A stretch of 64,000 nucleotides of DNA from an uncultured Bacilli bacterium (GTDB taxonomy: Bacteria; Bacillota_I; Bacilli_A; RF39; UBA660). The stretch covers positions 81,051-145,050 of the forward strand of contig CAKORX010000001.1 in NCBI GenBank assembly GCA_934101645.1. Direction: 5' to 3'. The translations under genes were made by a program, and so were the position numbers. The notes under the pieces were generated by a model. It made no database searches. It was not told the DNA's origin and worked only from the letters and a program-made list of their open reading frames with translations. Shown one piece after another: positions 9,357 to 53,256 of the stretch. Within the stretch, counting starts at the first letter, position 1, and each line of letters begins with the position of its first letter.

Positions 9357-9533
9357 ACTACCCTTTTCTCTTTCATAAATACGATATCCATTATTTCAAA
9401 AACTATTACATTTAGAAATAACTCTATCTTATTTTTGTACCATTATAAATATATTTTATCATACTTTCATATTAAATAATATAAATTTTCATTAAATCAC
9501 ATATTTTTTTATAAATGTTTAACTTAATTTTAT

Positions 9534-9558
9534 AAAAAAAGCACATAATGTGCTAAAA
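9534..9558 (-). terminator. Intrinsic terminator downstream of paralog 2
   Basis: The minus strand reads GCACA-tta-TGTGC followed by T7, with an A7 run on the other side. Confidence 0.6.
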
Positions 9559-10263: not shown

Positions 10264-11169
10264 GCTTGTTCCAACCTTTTCATCAAATACACCAATTATT
10301 CTAAATGTATTATCTTCAGCACATGTACCAGATGAATTATTATCTAAACATATATAATTATCTGGATCTTTGCCTTCGTATCTATAACCGTTCTCATTTG
10401 CAACAATATATTTTGTAGATGTATCTTGACTTGATGTTTTTTCACCTTCAGCAGCTATATTTTTTATAAAGTCTTCGGCATCTGGTGTTACACCTTCACA
10501 AACTGGATTTTCTGCATAAACTTTTCCAACGAAATTTTTACTATCAAGTTGTGATTGTGACACCTCTAAATTATAGTATCTTGCGGTAATCTTCCAACTT
10601 TGAGTGTTTGGAGTGCTACTATTATTTGTAATTCTTGCACCAGTTGCAAGTTTTATTTTTGCTCCTTTTGTGCTAGTTTTAGCTATCCATCCTTTTGCTA
10701 TGTCATAATCAATATTTGTTTCTGCTCCAAAAGGATTAGTTTCACCGATTGGACCTTCAACTTCAAAAGTTATTTCTTTATCTGCACCACTTGTTTTAAT
10801 TGTTGGACTTTGTCCATATACACTTGAATTTAAATCGTATTCAAAAACTATATCATAAGTACATCTTGTGCTAAGTTCTGATGATCCCGTTAAAGTTACA
10901 TTTAATATTGCACTATTTTCTGCTGCTGCTACCCTATTATTTGCAACAATTTCACTCATATTTCCAGAGCGAACAAACAAATTTAAGATTGAACTATCTG
11001 ATACAAGTGATGAACTTCCTGGTGATGCTGCATTTATATTTACCGCTATATTACCATTTAAATTTTCATTAAATGAACCAAAATATGCAAATGCCGCAGA
11101 TACTACTATAATAAGTAACATTACTATTGCAAAAATTGAATATATATTTACCTTTACTTTATCTTTCAT
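9559..11169 (-). CDS. Secreted or surface protein of unknown function, paralog 2
   Basis: 536-aa ORF. The N-terminal half is ~60% identical to paralog 1 and the C-terminal half is identical. N-terminal motif SAAFAYFGSFN follows the hydrophobic segment. Confidence 0.7.
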   Translation of the reverse strand: MKDKVKVNIYSIFAIVMLLIIVVSAAFAYFGSFNENLNGNIAVNINAASPGSSSLVSDSSILNLFVRSGNMSEIVANNRVAAAENSAILNVTLTGSSELSTRCTYDIVFEYDLNSSVYGQSPTIKTSGADKEITFEVEGPIGETNPFGAETNIDYDIAKGWIAKTSTKGAKIKLATGARITNNSSTPNTQSWKITARYYNLEVSQSQLDSKNFVGKVYAENPVCEGVTPDAEDFIKNIAAEGEKTSSQDTSTKYIVANENGYRYEGKDPDNYICLDNNSSGTCAEDNTFRIIGVFDEKVGTSETNAKLQPVIRIIKSTNYTSSGIVWDTNRKNNWNNSSLKALLNGTYLTSLNSYNHIDKVLSTRWSLNSLDLSTGKYNEYWPQAQIFNNSEKYGVVYEGNPTYTYAKVGLMYPSDYMYGVMANDCDRSVVSWANDDTVPSYVNTEKCSTQNWLYNKKFDKTFWDNVSGNDYSAGLEWTLSPGSLNGSSAFDVSSDGNGGGDIFVGSLGSVRPLLNLDTSIELIGSGSLSNPYRIK

Positions 11170-11207
11170 AGTAATATTTTAACACATTTCAAATTATATA
11201 GGAATAT

Positions 11208-11229
11208 AAAAAAAGCACAAAATGTGCTA
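11208..11229 (-). terminator. Intrinsic terminator after sortase gene 2. It overlaps the sortase TAG stop and lies only ~40 bp upstream of paralog 2.
   Basis: The minus strand reads GCACA-ttt-TGTGC followed by T7. The same stem sequence occurs in the terminator at 9534..9558. Confidence 0.55.
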
Positions 11230-11952
11230 AATAATTTCTTTTGCTATAACAAGCATATATTTATTTTTATATTTACTATATTCTTTTAAGTTACTACATG
11301 TCTGAATTATTAATAAATTATCATTTGCATTTACATTTATACCTGTATCATAAAATGATTTATTTTTAAGTTTTTGATAATGTGCTTCTTTTTCTTCTTT
11401 AGAAGTATAATCTATTTTCATATAATCCCAATCTTTAGTTTCTACGTATGCAGAAAAGATTTGATATTTTCTTACTTTTTTAGTAGTAGAAATGTAAACA
11501 TACTGATGCTCTTTATAATAATCTTCATTTACATAATTTTCGATAATCATTATTGGAAGCATGTAATTCGGAGAACTATGACCAAATATTAAAAGTTTTT
11601 CACTTTCATCAATATCAACTCTATAATCTAAAAAGATTGAACCATTTATATTATATGTTTTATCTGGTAAATGATTTAAATAATAACTATTATCTTTTCC
11701 CTGCATTATAGCGGTATTAAAATCGGTATCATTAATTTGAATGGTTCCTACTACATCATCATTATTATATTCCTTTTTTAATGAAGTAATTTTTTCTTCA
11801 TATACTTCTTCTTTATTATCAGGTAAATCTTTTGTTACTAAAATAAAATTATCATATTTACCAACGTTATAATACTCTAAAACAAAATATACTGATAAAA
11901 CTGTAAGCACTATAACGGGAATTATTACTAATAGTTTATTAATAATTTTCAT
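11227..11952 (-). CDS. srtB: Class B sortase
   Basis: N-terminal TM. Motif VVGTIQINDTDFNTAIMQGKDNSYYLNH...NGSIFLDYR, His in LIFGHS, and active-site LIIQTC. Confidence 0.8.
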   Translation of the reverse strand: MKIINKLLVIIPVIVLTVLSVYFVLEYYNVGKYDNFILVTKDLPDNKEEVYEEKITSLKKEYNNDDVVGTIQINDTDFNTAIMQGKDNSYYLNHLPDKTYNINGSIFLDYRVDIDESEKLLIFGHSSPNYMLPIMIIENYVNEDYYKEHQYVYISTTKKVRKYQIFSAYVETKDWDYMKIDYTSKEEKEAHYQKLKNKSFYDTGINVNANDNLLIIQTCSNLKEYSKYKNKYMLVIAKEII

Positions 11953-23509: not shown

Positions 23510-23884
23510 TTAATTTTCATTATTCATATTGTATTTTTCTACTCTTTTAATGCATTTTGAACTTTTTGGTTTAGTAAAACATTCCATACAAACATCATAA
23601 TCATTTTTTACAGCATCAAAACCAGTTATCAAAGGATATATTCCATTCATAATACTAGGCAAAAAGAATATTACTACTGCAATAATAAATTTATTTATAA
23701 GTGATTTAATACCCTTTTTTATTTCTTTATCATCATCAGAAATAACTGCTTTTCCTAAAGTTAAAATACCCATTACAATTAACACTATTGGAAGTAAAAT
23801 TTTAACAATTATAAGTATATATCCTAAATTTTGCCATACAGTAATTGTACTTTGGCAAAAACCATTTTCAGTCCCAAGTCCCAT
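23510..23884 (-). CDS. Small 2-TM membrane protein with a Cys-rich C-terminal tail, paralog of the next gene. Function unknown.
   Basis: 124 aa. Two hydrophobic helices are separated by the charged loop SDDDKEIKKG. The C-terminus carries the motif CMECFTKPKSSKC. Confidence 0.55.
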   Translation of the reverse strand: MGLGTENGFCQSTITVWQNLGYILIIVKILLPIVLIVMGILTLGKAVISDDDKEIKKGIKSLINKFIIAVVIFFLPSIMNGIYPLITGFDAVKNDYDVCMECFTKPKSSKCIKRVEKYNMNNEN

Positions 23885-23983
23885 ACAAATCTCCCCTTCA
23901 TTAAAAATATATCACTAACTATACCACATATTCAAAAAAAATACAAATAAAAAACCATTATCACTTAAGATAATGGTTAATTA

Positions 23984-24367
23984 TTAATTTCCTCCAGATA
24001 CAGGACATTTAGATTGTGGACTACCAATACATTCAACACAAACCATGTAATCAGGTTTAACGTCATTAAATCCATTTACTAAATTAAAACATGCAGTAAC
24101 GATATTTGGTAAAAAGAATATTACAACTGCCGCAATAAACTTAGTTATTAATCTATTAACTTGCGTTTTAATTTCCTTATCATCATCTGCAAGAACTGCC
24201 TTTCCAAGTCCAATAATTCCTAAAACGATTAAAACAACTGGAATAACAATTTTTAAAACTAAAACAATTCTTCCAACAAATTGCCAAACGTCAGCTGTTT
24301 GTGAGCAAAATCCGTCAGCACCGCCTAAAGTAGATGGATCAAAATCATCAAATAATCTCATATACAA
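23984..24367 (-). CDS. Small 2-TM membrane protein with a Cys-rich C-terminal tail. Function unknown, possibly a pilin-like accessory.
   Basis: 127 aa with the same architecture as the previous gene (loop LADDDKEIKTQ, C-terminal motif CVECIGSPQSKC). Its topology only superficially resembles VirB2/TrbC. Confidence 0.55.
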   Translation of the reverse strand: MYMRLFDDFDPSTLGGADGFCSQTADVWQFVGRIVLVLKIVIPVVLIVLGIIGLGKAVLADDDKEIKTQVNRLITKFIAAVVIFFLPNIVTACFNLVNGFNDVKPDYMVCVECIGSPQSKCPVSGGN

Positions 24368-24439
24368 CTCTCCTTTACATACCTATATTTTACCTTTTTT
24401 ATATATTTATGTCAATATTTACTACAAATAGTTTACAAG

Positions 24440-25438
24440 CTATCTAAAGATACTAAATCCAAAAGATTCTTTATCAGAAATTCTTGTAAAACCTAATTCT
24501 TTAAGTAACTTATTAATTATCTTGTTATCGTCAATTTTATCATCAACATTTGGTAAATTGAAAAATACTTTACTACCACTTTCTTTTTCAAAATCACTTA
24601 CATCGTTATCGTTTAATACACTACGATTTAAGATAATCTTTTTGCCTTTTAACTTTTCAAAAGCCTTATGATCTGTTTTAATTAATTTATTAAGCTGAAT
24701 AAGGCCAGGCTCAATTAAATAAATTATATCCGTACAATAAGAACTTGCATCAGCATTATTCATATCAATTATAATAACTTCAGCATCTTTATTACTTGCA
24801 TCATCTAAATATTTTTCTATATCAAAACTATTTACATTGCTTTTTAAATTACTATCATTAAAATAAACAAAATCGCTTTTATCTAGTTCTGCAGCTTTAA
24901 CTTTATATTCCTTTTCTAGATGTTTTTTTAATAAATAAGCAAGTGTAGTAGCACCAGCATGTTCAGTAACATTTTTAATACCTAAAACTCTTCTTCCAAT
25001 AAAACCAACACTTTTATCAACTGCTTTATCATTAAGTTTTCTTTCTTCAGCTGCCATATTCAAATTATGATAATTGGCAACATCTTTGTATGTATTTGGG
25101 TTATCTATTAAAAAAGGTATAGAATCTACATTTTTTGTAAAATTGTAAATACCCATTGATACAAGACTTGACAAATACATTGGTGAGTTTACCTTCGGAG
25201 AATCATCTAAAAGTAAAATTACTTTACTCATGTCAAGAGCTACTGACAAATCTTGAATTGTGTTAATATCCTCGTAATTTTCAAGTGCTGTAATATCTAA
25301 AATCATTCTATTGTAATAAAAATTTTTGAATTGAGATGCTAAATCATTTACCTCAAAAACCCCGTTTAAAGTTTTAATTACATCTATGCCTAAACCAGCA
25401 AGTAATGCTTCATTTTTATTTGAAATAATAACGTTCAT
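24440..25438 (-). CDS. TadZ/CpaE-like pilus-assembly protein with a MinD/ParA-type ATPase fold and a degenerate P-loop
   Basis: The N-terminus is a receiver-like domain. The central segment GIKNVTEHAGATTLAYLL aligns to the MinD P-loop region but lacks the Lys. The gene lies immediately downstream of the pilin genes, as in Tad loci. Confidence 0.5.
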   Translation of the reverse strand: MNVIISNKNEALLAGLGIDVIKTLNGVFEVNDLASQFKNFYYNRMILDITALENYEDINTIQDLSVALDMSKVILLLDDSPKVNSPMYLSSLVSMGIYNFTKNVDSIPFLIDNPNTYKDVANYHNLNMAAEERKLNDKAVDKSVGFIGRRVLGIKNVTEHAGATTLAYLLKKHLEKEYKVKAAELDKSDFVYFNDSNLKSNVNSFDIEKYLDDASNKDAEVIIIDMNNADASSYCTDIIYLIEPGLIQLNKLIKTDHKAFEKLKGKKIILNRSVLNDNDVSDFEKESGSKVFFNLPNVDDKIDDNKIINKLLKELGFTRISDKESFGFSIFR

Positions 25439-25449
25439 AAAAAACCTCC

Positions 25450-25968
25450 TTAACTATATAATAATTTTGTTTCACCAATTGCTCTAAAATTAAATATGGC
25501 ATGTAAAACTGGAATATCTAACTGATAAAAAACATATACACGATAATAATAACCTTTTAGTGTATCCTCAGATTTATTACTATCTATCTTCGCAATGCAA
25601 AAAGAACTTTTTTTACCACTTAAAGTTTTATCGCCATTTCTCTGATAACCAACCATATCTACGACAACACTGCCGTTTTCATTAAATGGTATATCTTCAC
25701 AACTTCCTTGTTGACGATAAGAATTACTTTCTAATGAATCAACAATATTTTGTAAAGTGGCTTGATCTTTATTATCCATATTACAATTTCCTAAGAAACA
25801 TTGAGCGCTTGTATCAAATCCTCCAGCAGTTTCGATTATTGAAACTATTTGGTCCTTTACAGCAAAAGCATTAGCCTGATTTAATGTAAGAGACATTACT
25901 CCTGCAAAAATAAGTACCATTACAACAACAATTAAAAATAATTGTATTCCGCCTATTCCTTCTCTCAT
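25450..25968 (-). CDS. Pseudopilin-like protein, TadE-like. It has an N-terminal hydrophobic segment after a short charged leader.
   Basis: The N-terminus reads MREGIGG|IQLFLIVVVMVLIFAG followed by an extracellular domain. Its position in the Tad-like operon supports the call. Confidence 0.4.
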   Translation of the reverse strand: MREGIGGIQLFLIVVVMVLIFAGVMSLTLNQANAFAVKDQIVSIIETAGGFDTSAQCFLGNCNMDNKDQATLQNIVDSLESNSYRQQGSCEDIPFNENGSVVVDMVGYQRNGDKTLSGKKSSFCIAKIDSNKSEDTLKGYYYRVYVFYQLDIPVLHAIFNFRAIGETKLLYS

Positions 25969-25974
25969 AACTTA

Positions 25975-26196
25975 CTACCCCTTAAACATACATTGGAAAC
26001 TTTTACCATCTAAGGTGCAATTTACCATACCATTTTCATCAGGATACACTGAACAACTTGCTTTTTCACAACTTGTTTGCGCAACAAAATTAGTTTTAAT
26101 TATTGGCCATATTGTAAAGTAAAAAAAGGCTACGAGAATAGCCACACAAACACATACAACAACAAGATTTGCTAGACTTCCCGTAGCATTTTTCAT
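25975..26196 (-). CDS. Flp-type pilin-like small protein with a Cys-rich C-terminus
   Basis: 73 aa. The N-terminus MKNATGSLANLVVVCVCVAILVAF is a short polar leader ending in G plus a hydrophobic helix. It shares the K-x-A-T-G-[ES]-L-x-N motif with the next gene. Confidence 0.55.
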   Translation of the reverse strand: MKNATGSLANLVVVCVCVAILVAFFYFTIWPIIKTNFVAQTSCEKASCSVYPDENGMVNCTLDGKSFQCMFKG

Positions 26197-26220
26197 TTTT
26201 TCTTACTCCTTTTTGATTAA

Positions 26221-26481
26221 TTATTGACCTACTGTACAATCACATTGAATAGTGTCTTCGCTAATATTCATACCAGCAGCACTATCAGCATCTGTGTAAT
26301 AATGGCATTCTTGAGTACCATTATCACATGCAGTACATTGTACTGCAGCATGACAATAAGTTCTTGCTCTAATAGCGTTTCTTAAAGCGGGATATAAGAA
26401 TACTGTGAATAATGTTAGTATAGCAGCAATTGCAACTACAGTTATAACAGTGTTACTTAATTCACCTGTAGCTTCCTTCAT
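26221..26481 (-). CDS. Flp-type pilin-like small protein with a Cys-rich C-terminus
   Basis: 86 aa. The N-terminus MKEATGELSNTVITVVAIAAILTLF is followed by 8 Cys in the C-terminal 50 aa. Confidence 0.55.
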   Translation of the reverse strand: MKEATGELSNTVITVVAIAAILTLFTVFLYPALRNAIRARTYCHAAVQCTACDNGTQECHYYTDADSAAGMNISEDTIQCDCTVGQ

Positions 26482-26551
26482 ATATTTAATCCTCCTTTAT
26501 TGTATATTTTTATTATAACAACATTTTATTTAATTATCAATATATTTTACA

Positions 26552-27343
26552 TTATAGATTAATCATTTCAAGTACAGCAAGTATCAAGATAATCATTACA
26601 CCTACACCTGTTGTAACAAGCATTCTCATGGTCATACTTTCCATTTTATCAAGACGATTTTTATATCTTGTTTCTCTAGCCTTTTGCTGTAAAGATGAAA
26701 TTGATTTTGAAAATGTTAATAATTGTTCTTGTTTTCTTTCCTGTCTTCCTAAACTTAAACGATATAGTAGTCTCATCATTCTCATACTATCTCTAACAGG
26801 ATATTCTTTTGCAAATTCCATATAGGGAGTAATTGTATCATCACCAGAGTTAATTGCATTTATTAGTTCCTCAAGACCTGGTTTAAATATCTCTGGTGCA
26901 TCATTTATAGATTTACCTATTGCAACTGGAACTGTATAGTGTTGAATTAATATTTCAATACTTTTTAAATAGTGTGGAAGCAAAGAATCTATTTGAGCAA
27001 TATGCTTTTTATAGTAGTTTTTTATTTCCATATAAGTTATTTTAAATACACCATAACCTACAGCCACTGCAATAACCATTTTTATCGCAGAAAAGCCTGT
27101 CATCATTACGTAAAATACTGCTAAAATTGTACCAATTAAACCATTTCTAACACGTTTATTAAAAAGAATATCGGGATTTACGGCATTACCATATTTTGCT
27201 TTAACATAAAAATCCCAATCACTTTCTTTTAATTTTCTAAAAATAACTTCATTATCACTAATTAATTTACTAAAACTAATTTGTCCCGTAGTGAACATTA
27301 TTAAATAAATAATGGCCCCTAAAATAAATATTTCATAATACAT
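26552..27343 (-). CDS. tadC: Tad pilus assembly inner-membrane protein of the TadC/GspF-domain family
   Basis: 263 aa. An N-terminal TM, a cytoplasmic domain and C-terminal TMs. Adjacent to the TadB-like gene and the ATPase. Confidence 0.55.
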   Translation of the reverse strand: MYYEIFILGAIIYLIMFTTGQISFSKLISDNEVIFRKLKESDWDFYVKAKYGNAVNPDILFNKRVRNGLIGTILAVFYVMMTGFSAIKMVIAVAVGYGVFKITYMEIKNYYKKHIAQIDSLLPHYLKSIEILIQHYTVPVAIGKSINDAPEIFKPGLEELINAINSGDDTITPYMEFAKEYPVRDSMRMMRLLYRLSLGRQERKQEQLLTFSKSISSLQQKARETRYKNRLDKMESMTMRMLVTTGVGVMIILILAVLEMINL

Positions 27344-27344
27344 A

Positions 27345-28247
27345 TTATTCTACCCCCACATCTTCATTATAATATTTTTCACCTTTTAATAGGAACAAAG
27401 CATTTATAATAATAATTGCATGAAGTATAATTTGCACATACCATATATCTAAAAGGTCCATATATCTTTCAGTACCATACATGTATTGTACAGCTAAAAT
27501 CAAGAAAAATAATGCTAAACCAAATTTAATAAATCTTCCATGGAAATTTTTACGATCCATTTGGTCCCTATAAACGCCTTCAACAAGAGCATCTATATCC
27601 ATTGACATGTTCTCTAAACTTTGTCCAGCATCCCTTGCACCTTCTTTAGTTATTTGATAGAAAAGTTGGTGCATATTTTTAACCATATAATATGGATATT
27701 TTTTATTAAAATAATCAATTGATTCATCTATCGTACCATTTTGATAAGACATATCAATCATCTTTTTAAGGTCACCTAATACAGGTTCTTCAATAATACC
27801 AGAATCCCTAACACCCTCTAATGATTTAACAAAACTTTGAGTTGTATTAAACTCCATTATTACATTGGTTGTGTAAGTTTCAATTTGTTCAAATATAAAT
27901 TCTGAATATATTCTTTGGCATCTTAAATATGCTAGATAAGGAATTACAGATATTGCCACCACAGCATAAACAATTGATATCAAAACATTATAAAAATATA
28001 AATACGCTACGATACCAGCAAAACCAGCAAATAAAACTATTTGTGAAATATATTGTCTCGTAGTAAACTCTTGACCAAGTTCTTTAGCTTTTGCTCTTAC
28101 TGTCTTAAATGAATACGGAGCATATTTTTCATAAGCATTTGATGCAGTGGTAACAAAAAACTTATAAACATTTTCTCCAGGATTTCTACGATACAAAATG
28201 ATAAAAATTCCCAGTAACAAAAGTATAATAAGTTCTAACACATACAT
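27345..28247 (-). CDS. tadB: Tad pilus assembly inner-membrane protein of the TadB/GspF-domain family
   Basis: 300 aa with polytopic topology typical of the T2SS F domain. The ORF start is only about 10 nt downstream of the ATPase ORF end (stop not checked), and the ORF end is 2 nt from the TadC-like ORF start. Confidence 0.55.
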   Translation of the reverse strand: MYVLELIILLLLGIFIILYRRNPGENVYKFFVTTASNAYEKYAPYSFKTVRAKAKELGQEFTTRQYISQIVLFAGFAGIVAYLYFYNVLISIVYAVVAISVIPYLAYLRCQRIYSEFIFEQIETYTTNVIMEFNTTQSFVKSLEGVRDSGIIEEPVLGDLKKMIDMSYQNGTIDESIDYFNKKYPYYMVKNMHQLFYQITKEGARDAGQSLENMSMDIDALVEGVYRDQMDRKNFHGRFIKFGLALFFLILAVQYMYGTERYMDLLDIWYVQIILHAIIIINALFLLKGEKYYNEDVGVE

Positions 28248-28259
28248 ATAAACTCCTTT

Positions 28260-29402
28260 CTATAATGAATCAATAGCTTCCATTTTTGGCATTTCTAATT
28301 CTACATCTTCATTATTTGTTTCTTTTTTTACTTCATCGGTGTTATTAACTTCATCAAATAAAGTTTCATCAAGTTTCTTTCCTTGTGCTCCAAAATAATC
28401 CTTTAAATATTTCGTAGGTTTATTAAATGAAATAGTTCCATCCAAGCTCTTAGAAAATATTTTATTTACACCAGCTTCATTATTTTCATCTACATAAAAT
28501 TCCGCAACCTCAACTATTTCACGTTGAAATCTTTGAAGTTCTGCACTCATGTATCCTTTAACATGGATACCAATTTGTACATATCTATGAATTGATTTTA
28601 AAAATTGTTCAATATCTTGATTGCTTTCAAGAAGTGAATACATACGCATTGGAATATGACTTGCACTATCTGAGTGAATTGTAGAAATAATATTATGTCC
28701 TGATGAAATAGAGTTACGTACAGCAGTAACAGCTTCGGCAGAACGAACTTCGGAAAGTAGTATCCATTTAGGATTCTGTCTCATACATGTTACAAGTACA
28801 TCAGAATACGATGCAATATTATTGGTTTTCATTGCAACAATATCTCTATGTGGAAAAATTCTATCTAAATGTAATTCCAAAGTATCTTCGATTGTAATAA
28901 TTTTTTCGTTTTCCTCAGTATTTGAAGCTAAATATTTAGCAAGTTCAGTTTTACCTGAACCAGTTTCACCGGAAATAATAATATTGCAGTGTGCTTTAAC
29001 ACATGATATTAAAAAATTATGTACATTTTCAGTAACATATTTTTCATTAAGTAATTTTTCTTTATTAAGTCTTATCTTTGCAGGTGTTTTTCTTATAACA
29101 CATGCAATTCCATTTGTAGCAATACTTTCATGAACAAAGTTAAGACGAAGTTCTGTACTTTCGGCATCCAGAAATGGATGAGCCATGTTAAATGTAGTTC
29201 CCATAACATTTGAACATTGAAAAGCAAGTTTTTCCATTAAAGCATTATTTATTTCAGGTCTATTGACCATATATATACCTTTATCCAAAGTTTTTAGCCA
29301 AACATTTCCACCATTTGAGTACGAAATATCGGTAATATTATCATCATTTAAAAACTCAGTTATTGGTCCAAAATCTAATTGTGAAAATATTGATTCTTTC
29401 AC
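28260..29402 (-). CDS. tadA: Secretion ATPase of the CpaF/TadA/VirB11 family
   Basis: Walker A in IIISGETGSGKTE. His-box-like SSGHNIISTIHSDSA. GTG start with a GGAG RBS. Confidence 0.8.
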   Translation of the reverse strand: MKESIFSQLDFGPITEFLNDDNITDISYSNGGNVWLKTLDKGIYMVNRPEINNALMEKLAFQCSNVMGTTFNMAHPFLDAESTELRLNFVHESIATNGIACVIRKTPAKIRLNKEKLLNEKYVTENVHNFLISCVKAHCNIIISGETGSGKTELAKYLASNTEENEKIITIEDTLELHLDRIFPHRDIVAMKTNNIASYSDVLVTCMRQNPKWILLSEVRSAEAVTAVRNSISSGHNIISTIHSDSASHIPMRMYSLLESNQDIEQFLKSIHRYVQIGIHVKGYMSAELQRFQREIVEVAEFYVDENNEAGVNKIFSKSLDGTISFNKPTKYLKDYFGAQGKKLDETLFDEVNNTDEVKKETNNEDVELEMPKMEAIDSL

Positions 29403-29424
29403 AAATAATCACTCCCTTTTATTT

Positions 29425-30195
29425 TTATTCTTCTGGTAATGGTGAAGTCTTAGCTAATATAAAGTTCTTTAGATATTCTACAGTAACAGTACTAGCATTT
29501 TTTTCTGTATATGCTTTATTACGAGGTACAGGTACTAAAGTAATACCTGAAATATATCCAGCATACATTAATAATTTATACATGTCATTTGGTACGGCAA
29601 ATAAAAGTTCAGCAGGTGTTCTTGTCTCAGTAGAGCCAAATACATCTTTACCACTTGCATCACGTACACCTAAAACTGTGATACTTTCAATAAAGTTACC
29701 AAACATAATTTTTCCACTATCATCAGTAGCTTTTAAATAAAGGTCAATTTTATCACCAGGATAAATTGAATTACCAAATGTTGTATGATTATTAACAGAC
29801 ATACTATAAATTGTATGCTTATCTGGAATATTATCAAATACTGAGTTTGGTAGTTCAGCTTTTGTAACTACTTGAGTTTTATAGAAAAGTCCTCCTTTAG
29901 GAATAGATGTACCAGTAGTAACATAATAACCAATTAAAGCTCCTTGACTTTGAATAATATCTGCAGTTTTTAAGAGTTTATTATTAACCTCTACAAACCC
30001 AATCTTATCTTCAGTAATTTCTTCTGTAGCTTTAATCTCTTCCTTTGCATAAGGTACTCTTATCGGTGTTGTTGCCTCTTTTACTCTTGCTGAGTAAAAA
30101 GCCCAAAGTACAACAATACCTGCAAGTACAAGTAAAATAGTAACTGTATTTTTATTTGCAACAGTCTTTCTAATAAATTCTTTTATATTTCCCAT
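29425..30195 (-). CDS. cpaB: Flp pilus assembly protein CpaB/RcpC-like (N-terminal TM plus a SAF-like domain)
   Basis: The likely start is ATG at 30195 (MGNIKEF...) with a GGAGGA RBS. The ORF is open further upstream to 30270. TM is TVTILLVLAGIVVLWAF, and the SAF-like region is ADIIQSQGALIGYYVTTGTSIP. Confidence 0.5.
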   Translation of the reverse strand: MGNIKEFIRKTVANKNTVTILLVLAGIVVLWAFYSARVKEATTPIRVPYAKEEIKATEEITEDKIGFVEVNNKLLKTADIIQSQGALIGYYVTTGTSIPKGGLFYKTQVVTKAELPNSVFDNIPDKHTIYSMSVNNHTTFGNSIYPGDKIDLYLKATDDSGKIMFGNFIESITVLGVRDASGKDVFGSTETRTPAELLFAVPNDMYKLLMYAGYISGITLVPVPRNKAYTEKNASTVTVEYLKNFILAKTSPLPEE

Positions 30196-30314
30196 TTTTA
30201 TCCTCCATATTGATAATCTTCTACTATCAATTAAAATTATAGCAATTTTTAAAAATATTTTCAATAACATATCATAAAAAAAGACACATTTTTATTCTCG
30301 TGTCTTTTTGGTTT

Positions 30315-31463
30315 TTATTTGAATGCTATATATTCAGTAAATGCACTATTTACATTATCATACTTTTCACAAGATTGTCCTACCATCGGATTATAAACTT
30401 TAAAACAATTGTTAGTTGCATCATAACCATAAATAGTGTAATAATGTCCACTTTTTGTACTTTTCAAAGTTGAATCACTTCGTGCAGAAAAACCTGGTGC
30501 TAAAGATGCAACGACTACCTGACCACTTGCTAATGCATCATATATTGCCTTTGCATGACCGGATGGACCTTCGCCAAATTTTCCTCCAGACCCAGCAACA
30601 CTGATTCCGATTGAATTATAAAAACTATTACTTTGATTATAGTCATTAACTCTTCCACAGAATAAACTGCTTGAGGCATCAGTAGTATTACTTGTCGGAT
30701 CTCCATTTAATCCTACTTTATTCATTCCAACATAAGCAGCTGCTGCAAGTTTGTTATAATCACTGCCATTATAACCTGTTGCACTCTTCAAATTATTTAC
30801 TTTACCTAGAAAATATGCAGCTTCAGTAATAGCAATTGGTCCACATGCACAGCCAAAGTTTACATTGTAATCACCCCATGTAGTAGACACATTTTCACGT
30901 CTACTAGACTGATATATATTCGCAGGATTAATATTAAATCCAACGTCATGTAATTCTTCATCGCTTGGTGTTTCTTCATCAGGATTTGTAGGTGTATCTG
31001 GATTAGTCGGTGTTGTTTGATCTGGCTCTTTAACATTTTCTCCAGTTCCTTGACTATCTTTAGTCTTTGTTTCAAGAATTGCATCAATTCTATTAACAAT
31101 ATCAAATGTTGTTGAATCACCGCTTACATTAAATGCTGCAGATTTACTTGAAACTTGAACACCAACTTTTGGTGGAGCCTCGTAAATCTCAGTAAATTCG
31201 ATAGTATAAACAGTTGAAAGCGAAGCTTCTTCAGCAAATCTTCTTAAAAAAACTTCATAAAACTTTTCTTTGTTAATTTTTATCTCACCGTATTGACGGT
31301 AATAAGCATAATCTACTGCATCAACCATAGCTGACTCAGTAATTTCTTTTACTAAATAATAATCTTGTGTATTAGTTGAAGTATAGCTTTGGACAAGAAG
31401 GAGTACTACTATGATAAATACTCCTAAAACCATTAGCCAATAGCCCCAATAGGATTCCTTCAT
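30315..31463 (-). CDS. Membrane-anchored protein with a C-terminal papain-like cysteine peptidase domain (C39-like / BtrH-like)
   Basis: N-terminal TM. A Pro/Thr-rich linker (TPTNPDTPTNPDEETP). Catalytic-type Cys in NFGCACGPIAITEAAYF and His in SGHYYTIYGYD. Confidence 0.6.
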   Translation of the reverse strand: MKESYWGYWLMVLGVFIIVVLLLVQSYTSTNTQDYYLVKEITESAMVDAVDYAYYRQYGEIKINKEKFYEVFLRRFAEEASLSTVYTIEFTEIYEAPPKVGVQVSSKSAAFNVSGDSTTFDIVNRIDAILETKTKDSQGTGENVKEPDQTTPTNPDTPTNPDEETPSDEELHDVGFNINPANIYQSSRRENVSTTWGDYNVNFGCACGPIAITEAAYFLGKVNNLKSATGYNGSDYNKLAAAAYVGMNKVGLNGDPTSNTTDASSSLFCGRVNDYNQSNSFYNSIGISVAGSGGKFGEGPSGHAKAIYDALASGQVVVASLAPGFSARSDSTLKSTKSGHYYTIYGYDATNNCFKVYNPMVGQSCEKYDNVNSAFTEYIAFK

Positions 31464-31475
31464 TTCATACCCTCC

Positions 31476-34400
31476 TTACTTCCATGATGGTCCAACATCT
31501 GGTATACCATCACCATTTGTATCTAGTGAACTGAATTTATATATTGTCCAGTAATCATTTGTTACAACATCGCTCATTGTTCCAGCAGGACCTGTATAAA
31601 TTGTACTAAAGTTCTCTTTATTTTTTGTTCTGCCATCTTTATTTGCCATTTCTACTTTACCACCAAAATCATCGTTTAAAAGTTTATCAACAAATGTACT
31701 GTAGCAGAAAATGTTACTCATTCGACAAGTTTTGTCAGTATCATTAAATGAATAGCCATTCTTTTTACAACGATTTTCATCATAACCAGTTAGAACATAA
31801 TCTTCACATTTTAAAGTATCATTATTATATGTGCCTTGTTCTTTATTATATTCTCTAATTTTTGTTATCATATCTGTATCCATTGTAACTTTTAATGTAT
31901 ATTTTTCTACAGTTGGTACTCCTGAAGAACCACCACTTCCTTGACCAGTTTCTCCAGTCGCACGTTTAGTTATTTCTGTTCTTGTATCGCCAGCTTTTCT
32001 TGCAACTAATTTATTACCATATACATTAGCATTAGTTTCCCAGTTGAATCCAACAACACGGTCAGTTGGGAATAGGTTTCCTGGACTTACAGGTCTAAAA
32101 TCGTAAGATGGCTTTGATGGTGTATTAGGATCTTCTCTAGTTACAACACAGTCAATACACTCTACTACACAATTTGGACAACAATTATAATTTCTTTCAC
32201 ATTGTTCACCAGGAGTGCAGCCAACTGCAGCAAGTGCTTCTTGTCTAGAATTCATCTTCTGACAAGTTGAATCAAAATAGTTATTATCACAAACATAATA
32301 TCCTTTTGATTCCATTACACAATACCTTGCTTCACTAGATGCAGGGCAAAGTCTTTCTTTACATGTATCCCAATCCTCATCTTTGTTACATTCAGTTTTA
32401 TAATGTGATTTTCCAGAACTATCAACACATTCACTTTGTGATACTTCATAAGTACATGCATATTGATTTCCATCAAGTGTTATTCCAGAATTATCATTTG
32501 TTGTTGTAGTTTCTGATTTTCTAATTCCTTTATCAATATAATAGTTTGACATACTATCGCTTGATGTTCCAAATATACGTCCAAGTGTTGGACTTGTTGA
32601 ATAGAATGTACCAATATTATCAAGAGTTAAAATATAATAATATACTCCTTTTGCGGTATTAATTCCAACAGGTAAACCATCAACTCTATCATAGTTTTCC
32701 ATTTCAGTTTGGTTAGCTATTTTTATATTACCATCATCATGGCCTGAGAAATAAACTCTTGCTGTATTATATGTTCCTATAGAAGAAGCAATTTTATGAA
32801 CATATTTTATCTTTGTTACTGGGAACTCAGAATCATTTGATGTATTAGAACATGTGATTTCTCCCTCATCACTTTCAGGTACATCACATACAAAGTAATG
32901 TTCCTTATCATAAGATATTTCAGTACTTCCATCACATGTATCATAAGCATTATTTACTTCACCATCACAACGCCATGTAGTATCATGAATATTTCCATCT
33001 ATATCTTCTACTTGAGTAGCTTGTTCACAGTTAGCACTACCAGATGCACAAACCTCTGCTTGAACTTTTTCATCAGGACTTATCATTATATCGCAAGTAC
33101 CTTTTTCACAAGACAATCCTTGAACTTCATTTATCCATTTTGAAACAGAATTGTTGCCAGGTTCAGGTTCTTGATAACTATATTTTACATATGGATCATA
33201 AACATAAACCATATCCCAATTTAATTTTTTAGTAGTATCTCCAGACACACTTGTATAATCTTTGTCATCACCACATGAATTATATTTATCAACTATTTCT
33301 TTTAATTCTTCAATAGCCTTTGTAATTTTTGCTTTTGCAGCATTTCTCTTTTCTTCGAAACCACTCTTTTGACTTTCCCAATCACTTTTTGCAGATATGC
33401 ACATTGGGTCTTTGCTTGAATCTTCTTTACCAAAGTAAGATTTATTTCCCATATTAGTATCACTGAATACATCACTTGGATTACCTTTACTAAATGTTAT
33501 TTTCTTTCCATCATCTTCGACAGTATATTTAATGAATTTATTGCTATGGTTAATATAATATTTATACTCTACATCAGCACCTTCATCATCACTACATTTA
33601 ATTTCTTGGCTAGTATCTTTTATCCAAGTTTCAGTCTTATCTACAAATGTTAAATTTTCATAATAATATAGCCATTCATTATATGCATCAACTATTTCTT
33701 TTTGTTTTTCAACAACATCTTTGCTATATTGGTCTTTATCAATCTTAGTTGTATAGCAATCTTGTTGGCCCTTAATTTTAACACTTATTTGGAAATATCT
33801 TCCAGCTTCGGCTGTCTTTTTATAAGGTACACCAAATTTATAATCTTCTTTACATCTTACCTCACAATAAGGGTTATCTTGAACAGCTTGAGCATTAGTT
33901 GCATCAACATATTTATAAGAATTATCTGCAATATCTTTGCTGTCCTTTTTTAATAAACACTTTTTAATATTATAAGTTTTTGTATCAGGATTGTATGCTT
34001 CTCTAAACTCATAATCTAAATATTCTTCTATATCATTTTCATCGTATTTTACTAAATTATCACTATCACCAGGTTCACAAATTGTAGGTATTGTTACTGT
34101 TGGTTGGCATTTAGTATCACTACATAATTGTGTATTTAAAGTAAAATCGCCATTTACTGGTTCTGTGCTTGAAACTAAGAATCTTTGAATTTTGCTATCT
34201 TTACTAGTTTCTCCTTTTGGAGAAATTCTCGCTCCAGAAAAAGCTGATGTATATTCATATTCAATTTTTATACTAACAGAACAATCTTCCTCTGAATCCT
34301 CTTCATCGGCATCATCGTATTTATCTTCTTTTGTAAGTGTTAAAGAAAATCCTAAATAAAGTGTGCCTTTTCTATCACTATCACTTAATTTTTGTGACAA

Positions 34401-35261
34401 ATCCTCATTACTACTTACTGGGTCCCAACCTTCCACACTGTCATTAAAAGTTTTAGAAACCCCAAGGAATTTAACAGTAGCTCCATTTTTGGCTATTATT
34501 TCTGGTTCCTTAGTTAATTTAAAATATTCATCTGTACTTGTACCAGTTATATTGTTAATATCTAACTTGATTGAAACTATTTTTGTATAAGTAATTGTAC
34601 CATTCTCGGTAACTTTATTAATTTGACCTTCTTCGCCTTTTTCTACTTTAGTAGCCTTATTATCTTTAGAGTATTCTGCAGCATAATTTAAAGCTTTAGT
34701 TAAAATTTCTTTTACAGGAGAAGCTGCACTTGCATTACCAGCATACGCAGCAGTTGTAGTGACTTTCGCGCCGCCGTAAGCATTATAGGCTTTACTAAAC
34801 TCTTCGTCCTTCAAAAATTCTTTAACAAGAGCTCCTTCTTGGCTTACAAAGGCAGGATCATTAGAATTTTCAAATCCAGGTTGAATAACATCAGTAAGAA
34901 TTCTTAGTGCATAATGTTTAACATTATATTGGTTTGAATTATTCATTATGTACAAAGCCGCATAATCATATTTTGCAACAGTCGAACTTGTTGATGAAGG
35001 TAAAAGCCTTCCAACAACAAAATTTGAACCGTTAGGTGAATTTCCTCTGTCTATACAAAATGCCTCAAAGCTTTTTCCTGTTGAACTCTGAGTTGCCTTT
35101 GATATAGAATAACCCATATTACTAGGAAAGCCAAGGCCAGAATCATGTGAATTATGATCGTTACTAATTGTAAATGATTCACCCATTTTAAAGGCATAAA
35201 CATTTGGAACAAATATTAAAGTGAAAATAAATATAAATAATAATTTTGATATTTTTTTCAT
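31476..35261 (-). CDS. Very large secreted Cys-rich protein (1261 aa) of unknown function, a candidate pilus-associated adhesin or substrate
   Basis: Signal peptide MKKISKLLFIFIFTLIFVPNVYA. No C-terminal TM or sorting motif. Contains about 70 Cys. Only 1 nt separates it from the upstream gene, so it is operonic. Confidence 0.7.
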   Translation of the reverse strand: MKKISKLLFIFIFTLIFVPNVYAFKMGESFTISNDHNSHDSGLGFPSNMGYSISKATQSSTGKSFEAFCIDRGNSPNGSNFVVGRLLPSSTSSTVAKYDYAALYIMNNSNQYNVKHYALRILTDVIQPGFENSNDPAFVSQEGALVKEFLKDEEFSKAYNAYGGAKVTTTAAYAGNASAASPVKEILTKALNYAAEYSKDNKATKVEKGEEGQINKVTENGTITYTKIVSIKLDINNITGTSTDEYFKLTKEPEIIAKNGATVKFLGVSKTFNDSVEGWDPVSSNEDLSQKLSDSDRKGTLYLGFSLTLTKEDKYDDADEEDSEEDCSVSIKIEYEYTSAFSGARISPKGETSKDSKIQRFLVSSTEPVNGDFTLNTQLCSDTKCQPTVTIPTICEPGDSDNLVKYDENDIEEYLDYEFREAYNPDTKTYNIKKCLLKKDSKDIADNSYKYVDATNAQAVQDNPYCEVRCKEDYKFGVPYKKTAEAGRYFQISVKIKGQQDCYTTKIDKDQYSKDVVEKQKEIVDAYNEWLYYYENLTFVDKTETWIKDTSQEIKCSDDEGADVEYKYYINHSNKFIKYTVEDDGKKITFSKGNPSDVFSDTNMGNKSYFGKEDSSKDPMCISAKSDWESQKSGFEEKRNAAKAKITKAIEELKEIVDKYNSCGDDKDYTSVSGDTTKKLNWDMVYVYDPYVKYSYQEPEPGNNSVSKWINEVQGLSCEKGTCDIMISPDEKVQAEVCASGSANCEQATQVEDIDGNIHDTTWRCDGEVNNAYDTCDGSTEISYDKEHYFVCDVPESDEGEITCSNTSNDSEFPVTKIKYVHKIASSIGTYNTARVYFSGHDDGNIKIANQTEMENYDRVDGLPVGINTAKGVYYYILTLDNIGTFYSTSPTLGRIFGTSSDSMSNYYIDKGIRKSETTTTNDNSGITLDGNQYACTYEVSQSECVDSSGKSHYKTECNKDEDWDTCKERLCPASSEARYCVMESKGYYVCDNNYFDSTCQKMNSRQEALAAVGCTPGEQCERNYNCCPNCVVECIDCVVTREDPNTPSKPSYDFRPVSPGNLFPTDRVVGFNWETNANVYGNKLVARKAGDTRTEITKRATGETGQGSGGSSGVPTVEKYTLKVTMDTDMITKIREYNKEQGTYNNDTLKCEDYVLTGYDENRCKKNGYSFNDTDKTCRMSNIFCYSTFVDKLLNDDFGGKVEMANKDGRTKNKENFSTIYTGPAGTMSDVVTNDYWTIYKFSSLDTNGDGIPDVGPSWK

Positions 35262-35262
35262 A

Positions 35263-35988
35263 TTATATTATGTCCTTTCTTTTTTTCTTGCTAATTATTA
35301 TATAACCAGTTGCTCCAGCAATGATTACACAAGTTCCAATTATAAATATAGTTTTATTTTTCTTAACAAATTCCCATAATTTTTGAAAAAAAGTCTTATT
35401 TTTTTCTTCTTCTTGTCTTTCTTTATCCTCTTTATAATCCTCAATTTTATTTACAAAATCTTCAAATCCAGAATCAGTATATGATACATATTTATTGCAC
35501 ATATAAAACTCAGGATTCTCTTTGCAATAACCATAAGAAGAATATAAATTATATCTTGGTGTTGTTAAATAAAATGTTCTATTAAGTGTACCCTTACAAT
35601 CTGTTTTATCAGAATTGTATACATTAAAAGTAAATGTATGTATTGTCATTATATCTTCAAGATCAAAAGATATTATTCCATTTACAGCATTTTTACTTGT
35701 GAAAGTTTTATTAAATCCATTATCACCTTTTACAACTACATAAAAGTTTTCGCTTACATTTAATAATGATATTTTGAAGTAACTATACGATAAATCGCAA
35801 TCATTTTGTCCATCTGCACAAGTATATTTACTACGATCAAGTTCTGCAATTTGTTCTTCATATATTGCTTTAATCGTTGCAGCCTCACTATTAAGTTGTG
35901 CCTGCTGTTCATACGAGCACGCCGCATCTACATTGAAGCTAAAAAGTAGCATCAATAACATAAGAAAAAAATATTTTGTTTTTTTCAT
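35263..35988 (-). CDS. Secreted protein with a C-terminal TM anchor. It is the first gene of the Tad-like operon.
   Basis: Signal peptide ending NVDAA, a Cys-containing ectodomain, and a C-terminal TM with a KKKRK tail. Confidence 0.6.
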   Translation of the reverse strand: MKKTKYFFLMLLMLLFSFNVDAACSYEQQAQLNSEAATIKAIYEEQIAELDRSKYTCADGQNDCDLSYSYFKISLLNVSENFYVVVKGDNGFNKTFTSKNAVNGIISFDLEDIMTIHTFTFNVYNSDKTDCKGTLNRTFYLTTPRYNLYSSYGYCKENPEFYMCNKYVSYTDSGFEDFVNKIEDYKEDKERQEEEKNKTFFQKLWEFVKKNKTIFIIGTCVIIAGATGYIIISKKKRKDII

Positions 35989-36096: not shown

Positions 36097-36753
36097 ATGA
36101 AAATAAAGAAATTTTTTAAAAATTTATTCAAAGATATTGGTATAATCATAGGATTTATTCTTATTATAGTTTTACTATCTAATACATTTAGAAAATATGT
36201 TAGTAAAAATTCTATGTTATGGCAAATAATTATTTTTTCTATAGCAAGTTTATACTTATTAATTATTTATAGAAAAGAATTTAAAAATTACTTTTTAGAT
36301 TTTAAAAAAAATTATAAAAAGCATTTATCAAAAGGATTTAAAATTTACATAATATGTTTATTTTTTATGTATGTAAGTAACATATTAATTTATTATCTAA
36401 CTAAATCTTTAGCCACTAACGAAACAATGAATCGTGCATCTGTTTCTCAAAATTTAATACTTTCAGTTATTGATATGTGCATTCTTGCTCCCTTTTATGA
36501 AGAAACTTTATCTAGATTAAACTTCAAAAATTTATTTTCAAATAAATGGACATTTTCCATAATAACGGGACTTGCTTTTGGTTCATTACATCTTTTAGTG
36601 GCTGAGTCTTTAGTAGAATGTTTATATTTAATACCTTACTCAATTATGGGTTTTTCCCTAGGATATATGTATTATGATACAAATAATATATTTACTTCAA
36701 TGAGTTTCCATTTTTTGAATAATTTCGTAAGTATATTATTACTTGTTTTATAG
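36097..36753 (+). CDS. CPBP-family intramembrane metalloprotease (CAAX protease / Abi-like)
   Basis: Polytopic. Motifs EETLSR (EExxxR) and FGSLHLL (FxxxH). Confidence 0.7.
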   Translation: MKIKKFFKNLFKDIGIIIGFILIIVLLSNTFRKYVSKNSMLWQIIIFSIASLYLLIIYRKEFKNYFLDFKKNYKKHLSKGFKIYIICLFFMYVSNILIYYLTKSLATNETMNRASVSQNLILSVIDMCILAPFYEETLSRLNFKNLFSNKWTFSIITGLAFGSLHLLVAESLVECLYLIPYSIMGFSLGYMYYDTNNIFTSMSFHFLNNFVSILLLVL

Positions 36754-53178: not shown

Positions 53179-53256
53179 AAAATCTTCATAAAAAGTGAAG
53201 TTTTTTTTTGAAAAATATGTTATCATTATATTACATAAAATAGAAAGGGTTTAATT

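Follow-up and report, generated by a model that had tools for sequence, protein, structure and literature searches.

A conserved 13-gene operon of uncultured gut Bacilli that probably encodes a Tad-like filament machine

A 64-kb stretch of DNA from an uncultured Bacilli bacterium (assembly GCA_934101645.1, contig CAKORX010000001.1, positions 81,051 to 145,050; hereafter the window) contains, directly upstream of uvrA, an operon of 13 genes that we named g1 (35263-35988) to g13 (23510-23884). Our preferred reading, which we consider probable, is that this operon encodes a machine of the type IV filament superfamily, of the monoderm kind without a secretin, that is nearest to the Tad systems and makes a filament displaying an adhesin. 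An earlier interpretation, made from the letters alone (the sequence-only reading), had described a divergent pilus or secretion machine, perhaps displaying the giant protein g2. The Tad-like core of that description is borne out by our analysis, whereas the labels Flp, TadE and TadZ given to individual genes were over-confident. Almost every gene of the operon is now annotated as 'hypothetical', and yet it is among the most conserved surface-machine loci in a large, uncultured branch of small-genome gut Bacilli, so that its assignment to the Tad/type IV filaments gives a concrete hypothesis for how these Bacilli attach in the gut. The operon is also a chromosomal, conjugation-free copy of a gene block with unknown function on the plasmids pLS20 (genes 36-45) and pXO1, which raises the question whether Gram-positive conjugation systems build a Tad-like filament.

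Organisation and conservation of the operon

All 13 open reading frames (ORFs) are located on the minus strand between 23510 and 35988, in a window with a G+C content of ~27%. Going from g1 to g13, they are separated by gaps of 1, 12, 44, 22, 12, 1, 70, 24, 6, 11, 72 and 99 nt, and uvrA starts 126 nt beyond g13. Coordinates, strand and spacing (1-99 nt) agree with the 13 co-directional, closely spaced genes directly upstream of uvrA described in the sequence-only reading. The three best promoter-like sites (11/12 matches) precede the start of the 256-aa form of g4 (30264-30236), g8 (26540-26512, extended TG) and g12 (24387-24415), and a terminator-like hairpin is found between g12 and g13 (23953-23978). 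The number of such sites in the region is not above the expectation from shuffled sequence (98 versus 84±12 for promoter-like and 4 versus 3.2 for terminator-like sites), therefore these sites give only a hint of a sub-structure of the operon.

To find relatives, the DUF5411 domain of g3 was used as a marker. A DUF5411 relative is encoded by at least 363 GTDB species, and the locus comparisons were based on the best 78 loci out of these, each from a different GTDB species. The metagenome-assembled genomes (MAGs) of the fetched loci are labelled uncultured Bacilli, Tenericutes, 'Mycoplasma sp. CAG:472', 'Clostridium sp. CAG:609' and similar, names that look like those of RF39-type gut lineages. 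The order g1-g2-g3-g4-g5-g6-g7-g8-g9-g10-g11-g12/g13 is kept in nearly all loci of sufficient length, and the operon often abuts uvrA. In the 72 loci with both g3 and g5, g6 is present in 69, g7 in 66 and g1 in 65, and the missing genes are mostly explained by contig ends; g4 and g10 are duplicated in many relatives. Across species, the proteins are 64-92% (g6), 59-88% (g7) and 47-78% (g11) identical, and the g6 family comprises at least 8000 clusters at 90% identity. Since the same gene array recurs in most of the 78 loci, the 13-gene operon is real and under selection, and not a chance arrangement.

Identical copies of most operon proteins were found on many human-gut metagenome contigs, from the Hadza and other cohorts, with a metallophosphoesterase and a CPBP/Rce1-like protease gene upstream, and uvrA, lgt, a thioredoxin-reductase-like (trxB-like) gene and gltX downstream. 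These flanking genes, which are housekeeping or surface-protein genes, are syntenic across species. The sequence-only reading had named genes of a conjugative type IV secretion system (T4SS) in the flanks as an observation that would speak against a pilus; VirB4, VirD4 and relaxase were not found among the window ORFs scanned with Pfam, and the scanned flanking ORFs are the syntenic genes just listed. Family scans of the window gave no signal of a phage or defence origin, although no search was aimed at either. The operon is a vertically inherited, selected chromosomal system.

The Tad-like core and the proteins around it

The motor is g5 (28260-29402), by homology a 380-aa secretion ATPase of the CpaF/TadA-VirB11 clade. 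It matches Pfam T2SSE above the cut-off (E=8.8e-29), its translation shows a Walker A motif (GETGSGKT) and a His box (STIHSDSA), and the best solved relative is Caulobacter CpaF (1.6e-18), followed by VirB11 (~1e-14) and then archaeal GspE and FlaI. The CpaF/TadA-type ATPase of the sequence-only reading is herewith confirmed at the level of family and structure databases. The VirB11, TrbB and TadA models of NCBIfam gave sub-threshold matches (1e-32 to 4e-28), of which the VirB11 model scored best. In a plasmid collection, the nearest proteins were Firmicutes 'CpaF/VirB11 family' proteins (E 4e-45 to 2e-28), compared to ~1e-14 for proteobacterial CpaF and ~1e-11 to 1e-6 for VirB11/TrbB.

The presumed partners of g5 are g6 (27345-28247; 300 aa), a polytopic membrane protein with a single T2SSF-like domain, and g7 (26552-27343; 263 aa), likewise polytopic, which homology and fold show to be two half-size platform proteins of the TadB/TadC type. 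Sequence searches of Pfam, NCBIfam and PDB did not detect T2SSF in either protein, even with ortholog profiles, so the two T2SSF-domain proteins proposed before are not supported by direct detection, but they are by profile-profile comparison and by fold. The connection is made by a bridge sequence, a plasmid protein of Priestia koreensis annotated as 'T2SS F family', which matches Pfam T2SSF at 3.4e-5 and g6 at 1.3e-10 (phmmer), while the product of the gene downstream of it matches g7 at 5.6e-14. As reference for the profile-profile comparisons (hhalign), canonical TadB/TadC proteins from Ralstonia, Rhizobium and Sphingobium Tad loci were used. The g7 family aligned to these with 89% probability (E=2e-6), and the g6 family together with bridge sequences with 95.9% (E=5e-9, 199 columns); the g6 family aligned to the plasmid bridge set with 97% (E=4e-11). 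The comparisons with g6 worked only after divergent or bridge sequences had been added, since with shallow, ortholog-only alignments g6 and g7 matched each other with 1% probability, and g6 alone matched TadB/C with 0.1%. A confident fold model also recovers g6 and g7 as TadB/TadC-like. Ten distant g7 homologs from an exhaustive search of representatives showed no T2SSF match. In five of the distant homologs (P0388, P0389, P0397, P0402 and P0435) the g7-like part forms the C-terminal half of a 450-780-aa protein; proteins of the P0388 type may be fused TadB-TadC-like platforms, and P0435 also has weak matches to DUF1430 and the PrgI family.

The fourth core protein, g4 (29425-30270), is predicted to be a CpaB-like protein that acts as a scaffold on the periplasm side, with an N-terminal transmembrane (TM) segment followed by SAF and RcpC regions. 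Its true start is probably the ATG at 30195, as in gene callers, giving a protein of 256 aa. All lines of evidence agree, and each stays below its threshold: Pfam RcpC at 5.4e-6 (26.7 bits, cut-off 28.8), Pfam SAF at 9.5e-4 (20.1 bits, cut-off 21), TIGR03177 at 1e-6 (28 bits, cut-off 71) and, for the g4 family, canonical CpaB in hhalign with 67% probability (E=5e-5, 156 columns). The Priestia SAF protein is matched at 1e-15. The CpaB-like TM and SAF architecture proposed earlier is thus supported by concordant signals, but not by scores above curated cut-offs. Together, g5, g6/g7 and the CpaB-like g4 form the minimal core of a Tad-type filament machine.

Downstream of this core lie three small genes for pilin-like proteins. 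The 86-aa g8 (26221-26481) has an MKEATGEL leader, a hydrophobic helix and a Cys-rich tail with 6 Cys, and its 73-aa paralog g9 (25975-26196) contains 8.2% Cys and a conserved C.[YFW]KG end. In the alignment, MKEATGELNMTVVTVVAIAA..FF..WP stands nearly invariant at the N-terminus of both paralogs, whose heads are small and contain 4-6 Cys. In the 172-aa g10 (25450-25968), an MREGIGG leader and a TM segment precede a globular domain, and its family begins with M[RK]E.IG.TW followed by a hydrophobic helix; g3 starts in a similar way (MKE.YWGYW, MKESYWG in the window copy, and then a TM helix). The N-termini of the g8/g9, g10 and g3 families are alike in hhalign (E 5e-4 to 1e-3), all having a short M[KR]E..G leader before the TM helix, which is how class III (prepilin) signal peptides with leaders of 6-7 residues are built. 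It is this N-terminal architecture alone that carries the earlier label 'Flp-like pilins', because g8 and g9 are not members of the Flp family and their comparison with Flp-like proteins (hhalign) was not significant. g8 is a candidate major subunit. For g10, the earlier label 'TadE-like pseudopilin', which has the same N-terminal basis, had to be abandoned: the window copy has no TadE match, PF13400 was hit in only 1/46 family members, at 0.08, and the family aligned to canonical TadE with 0.8% probability (hhalign). What could be established is a link to DUF4320. The Pfam-type match of the family is only 0.08, in 2/46 members, but a DUF4320-like set from Priestia, pXO1, pLS20 (p40) and pZB18 aligned with 75% probability (E=2.6e-5, hhalign), and g10 is therefore a candidate minor pilin of a DUF4320-like kind.

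The 382-aa g3 (30315-31463) combines, according to Pfam, DUF5411 (1-133; PF17424, 3.7e-54), a Pro/Thr-rich linker and Peptidase_C39_2 (PF13529, 1.2e-7). The latter match supports the membrane protein with a C39-like Cys peptidase domain of the sequence-only reading, and the CGP and GH motifs of the domain appear intact by eye. In DUF5411 proteins of the database, C39_2 occurs in the closest relatives, and otherwise Peptidase_M15, VanY, M23, SH3_3, Big_2 or nothing recognisable is found. This swapping of peptidoglycan peptidases on the DUF5411 N-domain speaks for a wall-hydrolase function of the C39-like domain in g3. Elsewhere in the window there are genes for sortases, VanY and an SLT-domain protein as well as a sortase-type pilus locus, and because of the sortases and VanY we conclude that the organism has a cell wall.

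The largest product of the operon is g2 (31476-35261), whose translation is a 1261-aa secreted protein with a Sec signal peptide and 39 Cys (3.1% versus 0.87% background), as noted before. No match in Pfam, NCBIfam or PDB was found, for PDB also not with the family profile. The orthologs vary in length from 914 to 1842 aa and are just 22-47% identical, whereas the core proteins are 59-92% identical across species. The N-terminal region contains a conserved [FY]C[IM]D[PR]G motif (YC[IM]DPG-type) and, downstream, a conserved A[LIV]R. The two are reminiscent of the Cys and TQxAIW motifs in thioester adhesins, with the Gln mostly replaced, and the thioester domain TED was matched by 1/15 g2 orthologs (7.6e-5). 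The C-terminal ~450 aa are conserved as well, with CCPNC.V.C..C and an invariant GPSWK end: the orthologs finish with ...NDYWTIY...D.NGDG.PD.GPSWK (31476-31490), the terminal W-K being present in 15/15 aligned proteins. This end may be a docking or sorting signal; g2 has no signal for anchoring to the wall or the membrane.

The gene in front of g2, g1 (35263-35988), encodes a 241-aa protein without a family match in Pfam or NCBIfam. It has a Sec signal peptide, with cleavage predicted after VDA, a C-terminal TM segment with a basic tail, and 7 Cys (2.9% versus 0.87% background); the signal peptide and C-terminal TM anchor mentioned in the sequence-only reading are both visible in the translation. 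Tandem duplication of g1-g2(-g3) was seen in several species (loci L021, L047, L078, L040 and L031): L021 and L078 have two copies of g1-g2-g3, L047 has two of g1-g2, and in L040 g1 alone is triplicated. These duplications suggest a modular exchange of adhesin cassettes, and because g1 duplicates together with g2, the gene arrangement suggests that g1 is a partner of g2. Based on the g1-g2 duplications and on the variability of g2 compared to the conserved core, we propose that g2 is an exposed adhesin or displayed cargo with a degenerate thioester-adhesin-like N-terminus. High Cys content is a property of all predicted extracytoplasmic parts of g1, g2, g8, g9, g10, g12 and g13 (2.3-8.2% versus 0.87% in the other window proteins). 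At least 3 Cys are invariant in g8/g9, 4 in g12/g13 and many in the C-terminal region of g2. Such Cys richness is unusual for the surface proteins of an anaerobe; the Cys may form disulfides or bind metal.

The last three genes are g11, g12 and g13. The 332-aa cytoplasmic g11 (24440-25438) is a candidate TadZ-like protein with a degenerate P-loop (KNVTEHAGATT), and the pattern RVLGIKNVTEHAGATTL...KVKAAELD looks like the beta-strand, P-loop and helix of MinD/ParA with the Lys lost. A receiver-like domain such as that of TadZ could be formed by the first 130 residues. Even with a profile, g11 gave no match in Pfam, NCBIfam or PDB. When compared with TadZ-like and ParA sets (hhalign), only the P-loop region aligned (~35 columns, E=0.01-0.03, probability <4%), in a test of low power in which the positive control, a plasmid TadZ-like protein against canonical TadZ, failed as well. 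The name TadZ of the sequence-only reading is thus without statistical support. The two remaining proteins, g12 (23984-24367; 127 aa) and its paralog g13 (23510-23884; 124 aa), are 2-TM hairpins that had not been assigned to a family before and belong to the VirB2-like T4SS_pilin family. PF18895 is matched by g12 at 8e-4 and by g13 at 5.3e-5, both below the cut-off, and by 27/42 family members, with a best value of 1.6e-7; g13 also matches the NCBIfam model Mbov_0395 pilin-like at 0.007. Their alignment shows one invariant Cys before TM1 and three after TM2 (a C..C...C tail), in line with the paralogous 2-TM proteins with Cys-rich tails reported earlier, and a g12 or g13 homolog follows g11 in 43/45 loci. 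In nine loci (L027, L030, L038, L051, L064, L065, L073, L076 and L077) long proteins of 370-514 aa, whose N-terminus matches the g12/g13 hairpin, are located after the short copies; judged from their sequence, they would join a VirB2-like anchor to a large extracellular domain.

Relation to Tad systems and plasmid modules

As outlined above, the core is most similar to that of Tad/Flp (type IVc) systems such as Caulobacter Cpa, Aggregatibacter Tad and Bifidobacterium breve Tad, with which the operon shares a CpaF-clade ATPase, two half-size platform proteins, a CpaB-like protein, and small pilin-like and larger pseudopilin-like proteins with short leaders. Tad systems are found in Bacilli and Clostridia (Denise et al. 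2019, PMC6668835), and the lack of a secretin is shared with other monoderm Tad systems (PMC6668835). In contrast to these systems, the pilins of the operon have Cys-rich heads and are not of the Flp family, lacking G/XXXXEY; there is no TadE-family match, no demonstrable TadZ and, in the window, no TadV; and the putative TadZ-like gene comes after the pilin genes and not before the ATPase gene. In addition, the operon has extra parts, namely the DUF5411-wall-hydrolase fusion, the VirB2-like hairpins, and the Sec-dependent giant with its TM partner.

The same gene order is found in the 'VirB11' blocks of pLS20 (genes 34-45), pXO1, the Enterococcus plasmid pZB18 and a Priestia plasmid. Their common order is a large adhesin, a small DUF5411-type protein, a CpaF/VirB11 ATPase, two platform proteins, a DUF4320-type protein, tiny hydrophobic pilin-like proteins and a 2-TM VirB2-like protein, and on Priestia and pXO1 the block includes SAF/CpaB and MinD-like genes. 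In Priestia koreensis the order is an Ig-like giant, DUF5411, SAF/RcpC, MinD-like, CpaF/VirB11, 'T2SS F family', a membrane protein and DUF4320. The block of the pLS20 family runs from 34 (Tie) over 36, 37 ('VirB11'), 38, 39, 40 and 41 to 45, and that of pZB18 comprises a SpaA-like adhesin and a CPBP protease, with an annotated TrbC/VirB2 gene after the block. Homology with the plasmid blocks is supported for g5 (E 1e-32 to 1e-54), g6, g7, the N-domain of g3 and g10. Profile matches to pLS20 were found for g7 with p39 (6e-16), g7 with p38 (5e-8) and g6 with p38 (1.6e-4), and the g3 N-domain aligned to pLS20 p36-like proteins with 92% probability (E=8e-7, hhalign). There are differences as well. 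On the pLS20-family plasmids, pZB18 and pXO1 the block stands at the start of conjugation operons, is followed by VirD4, VirB6-like and other T4SS genes, and serves conjugation, whereas the operon described here is chromosomal, lies between housekeeping genes and is without detected T4SS genes. The pilin-like proteins of the two have no detectable sequence similarity, and the Priestia plasmid copy has its own TadV-like peptidase. On pLS20, the position equivalent to g2 is occupied by Tie, a thioester adhesin without which mating in liquid does not work (PMC8557374); unlike Tie, g2 lacks the thioester Gln. In the literature on this plasmid, genes 36 and 38-45 carry the label 'unknown', and Gram-positive elements are said to be without conjugative pili.

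A close analogue has been predicted by Miller, Stern & Burstein (2022), who described a 'secretion-related system' in the Clostridia Roseburia, Ruminococcus and Eubacterium (PMC9523054). Compared by description, it shares with our operon a CpaF ATPase, a PilC/GspF-like protein, DUF5411, a large internalin-like surface or invasion-type protein and an occurrence in gut Firmicutes (PMC9523054). It differs in having 8-9 genes in Clostridia versus 13 in uncultured Bacilli, and VirB2-like proteins, wall-hydrolase fusions and plasmid homology are not mentioned for it (PMC9523054). The operon contains what characterises such a DUF5411 module: DUF5411 in g3, a CpaF ATPase, platform proteins and a large surface protein, in the order of Priestia, pLS20 and pZB18. 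Contrary to the sequence-only reading, which had listed several components as not expected in a Tad locus, DUF5411, the large adhesin, the DUF4320-like protein and the VirB2-like 2-TM proteins recur beside the ATPase and platform genes in Firmicutes. What had been called 'non-standard' belongs to the regular equipment of a Firmicutes-specific Tad-like module and is no oddity of this locus. Searches of the literature on RF39 and pilus or Tad, and on pLS20 and pilus, did not yield an account of this system. Known, therefore, are the superfamily and a predicted close analogue; new is the 13-gene chromosomal version in uncultured Bacilli, which is marked by the fixed VirB2-like pair, the lack of a detected T4SS gene, the wall-hydrolase fusions and the Cys-rich pilins.

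Proposed machine, alternatives and neighbouring loci

In the machine that we propose, the g5 motor would act with g6/g7 to extract g8 and g9 from the membrane, resulting in a polymerised pilus or a short pseudopilus, with g10 and the DUF5411 domain of g3 as possible minor or priming subunits. The leaders of g8 and g9 would be cut at Gly6 by a prepilin-type peptidase encoded elsewhere in the genome, and the Cys-peptidase domain of g3 would open a local path through the peptidoglycan, as VirB1-type enzymes do for T4SSs. The fast-evolving adhesin g2 would be exported by Sec and displayed or positioned by the machine, with the membrane-anchored g1 as its partner, and g12/g13 may either contribute to a second filament or a sheath, or help in assembly from within the membrane. 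The likely role of such a machine is the attachment of these small-genome gut Bacilli to host, mucus, particles or other cells.

Several observations weigh against this reading. All matches of g5 to NCBIfam equivalog models are far below the cut-offs, and the TadZ-like match of g11 is below significance. g8 and g9 match no pilin family, Flp_Fap or other, in Pfam and NCBIfam, they lack the G/XXXXEY motif of Flp and have no Glu at +5, the residues after Gly6 being ELNMTV. g2 has a Sec signal peptide, no pilin-like N-terminus, no family match and no demonstrated link to a filament, and no Tad precedent explains the role of g12/g13. The organisms are uncultured, and no filament has been seen. Finally, motif scans and phmmer searches with two TadV-type queries did not find an A24 prepilin peptidase in the 64-kb window or in the 78 related loci, so for the window the earlier statement that TadV/PilD is missing from the locus stands. 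It is common, however, for one prepilin peptidase to serve several systems and to be encoded at another locus (PMC6668835).

Two other membrane proteins are of interest here. The Priestia koreensis plasmid encodes a 172-aa polytopic protein (L084, 2461-2979), annotated as hypothetical and without a Pfam match, that has both Asp motifs, TDVKELKTYN and PGDTK (SDLRSRRVPN and AGDVK in Ralstonia TadV), and is, judging from these motifs, probably an unrecognised TadV-type peptidase of the plasmid module. The divergent neighbour of g1 (36097-36753, plus strand) encodes a CPBP/Rce1-like intramembrane protease (PF02517 at 1.8e-15). A homolog is present upstream in 34/78 loci, and the next gene, the metallophosphoesterase, in 55/78; a CPBP protease is also found upstream of the pZB18 module (L083, 5641-6087). 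As an integral part of the operon this protease was rejected, because it occurs in 34/78 loci only and general synteny explains the adjacency. It is, speculatively, a candidate leader peptidase, or its position is plain synteny.

The alternative that survives best, although we regard it as unlikely, is a hybrid of Tad and T4SS, in which the CpaF/VirB11-type motor and the TadB/C platform assemble, or co-assemble, a filament of the VirB2-like g12/g13, with g8-g10 as accessory proteins. By extension, the equivalent genes of pLS20, pZB18 and pXO1 would build a Gram-positive conjugative pilus. Proteins of the VirB2/TrbC pilin type, a component of conjugative T4SSs, are indeed present in the form of g12/g13, given the T4SS_pilin matches in 27/42 members, and they are retained behind g11 although VirB4, VirB6 and VirD4 are not found nearby. 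The same block is directly followed by the TrbC/VirB2 gene on pZB18 and by p45, a 76-aa 2-TM protein, on pLS20, and the VirB11 model is the one on which g5 scores best. The four invariant Cys could moreover tie the N- and C-termini together, presumably much as in cyclised T-pilins. However, no system is known in which a T2SSF-type platform polymerises pilins of the VirB2 type, and the characterised T4SS pili need VirB4 and VirB6, which were not found here. In addition, the window copies of g12/g13 remain below the PF18895 cut-off, their family did not align significantly to two plasmid VirB2-like proteins (E=0.13, hhalign), and the hairpin and the promoter-like site on either side of g12 hint that it may be transcribed separately. 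A broader version, to which we also give only a small chance, unites the VirB2-like proteins and the 'VirB11' ATPase of Gram-positive mobile elements in a single Tad-derived filament machine, which these gut Bacilli would have domesticated for adhesion, because an operon without a detected T4SS gene keeps VirB2-like pilins beside a Tad-type motor and platform in 43/45 loci. If true, pLS20, pXO1 and pZB18 form an organelle similar to a pilus, which textbooks at present deny. In a sub-variant, the CPBP protease would remove the MKEATG leaders, given that no A24 peptidase was found in the window.

Rather improbable, too, is a short, piston-like pseudopilus for secretion or DNA uptake. It would drive g2 or further proteins exported by Sec across the wall, as in type II secretion, or pull DNA in, as in competence. 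The superfamily includes the pseudopili of type II secretion systems and Com systems (PMC6668835), and Tad pili are reported to be needed for DNA uptake in Liberibacter (PMC8513845). ComG resembles the proposed machine in being a type IV filament machine of monoderms that has one ATPase and lacks a secretin; g5 matches the ComGA model at 3.6e-23, the window has a gene for a secreted SNase-type nuclease (49003-49722), and the lack of an anchoring signal in g2 would suit a secreted substrate. The ComGA match, however, amounts to 82 bits against a cut-off of 300, which does not place g5 in ComG, and the platform consists of two half-size proteins as in Tad, whereas ComGB and GspF have a double T2SSF domain. 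Pilins of the ComGC type carry G/FTLxE, and no ComGC-like motif is present here. No DNA-receptor or channel genes were found either: ComEA, ComEC and DprA-type genes are missing from the operon and from the window ORFs scanned. Finally, the homologous block of pLS20 adjoins a proven adhesin and not secretion substrates. Very improbable is the idea that the operon is what remains, in decaying or domesticated form, of an integrated conjugative element, i.e. a mating-pair part without a present machine function. Outside the lineage, g5, g6, g7, the g3 N-domain and g10 do have their nearest relatives on conjugative or mobilisable Gram-positive plasmids, and the window contains a tyrosine integrase (54806-55882). 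Against this idea, all 13 ORFs are intact, the conserved core, gene order and neighbours (metallophosphoesterase upstream, uvrA downstream) and the many g6 clusters speak against decay, relaxase, VirD4 and VirB4 were not detected in the window, and the integrase is ~19 kb away, beyond housekeeping genes.

Aside from the Tad-like operon, the window contains a separate, sortase-dependent pilus-like locus (3555-11952). It consists of two sortase genes (3555-4370, plus strand, and 11227-11952, minus strand), a gene for a 1063-aa VWA and DUF4183 protein (4402-7593), and genes for two paralogous 536-aa proteins with an N-terminal TM segment and no Pfam match (7746-9356 and 9559-11169). The organism thus appears to encode two unrelated pilus systems within 35 kb. 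The integrase mentioned above follows two ORFs of 286 and 487 aa in a plus-strand segment (52318-55882) where the GC skew changes sign; this segment may be a small integrated element and appears to be unrelated to the operon. On the minus strand, between 44712 and 48086, two secreted proteins are encoded, one of 468 aa with a cadherin-like domain, and one of 651 aa with SH3_3 and a type I dockerin, a domain that is unexpected in a gut Bacilli lineage with small genomes.

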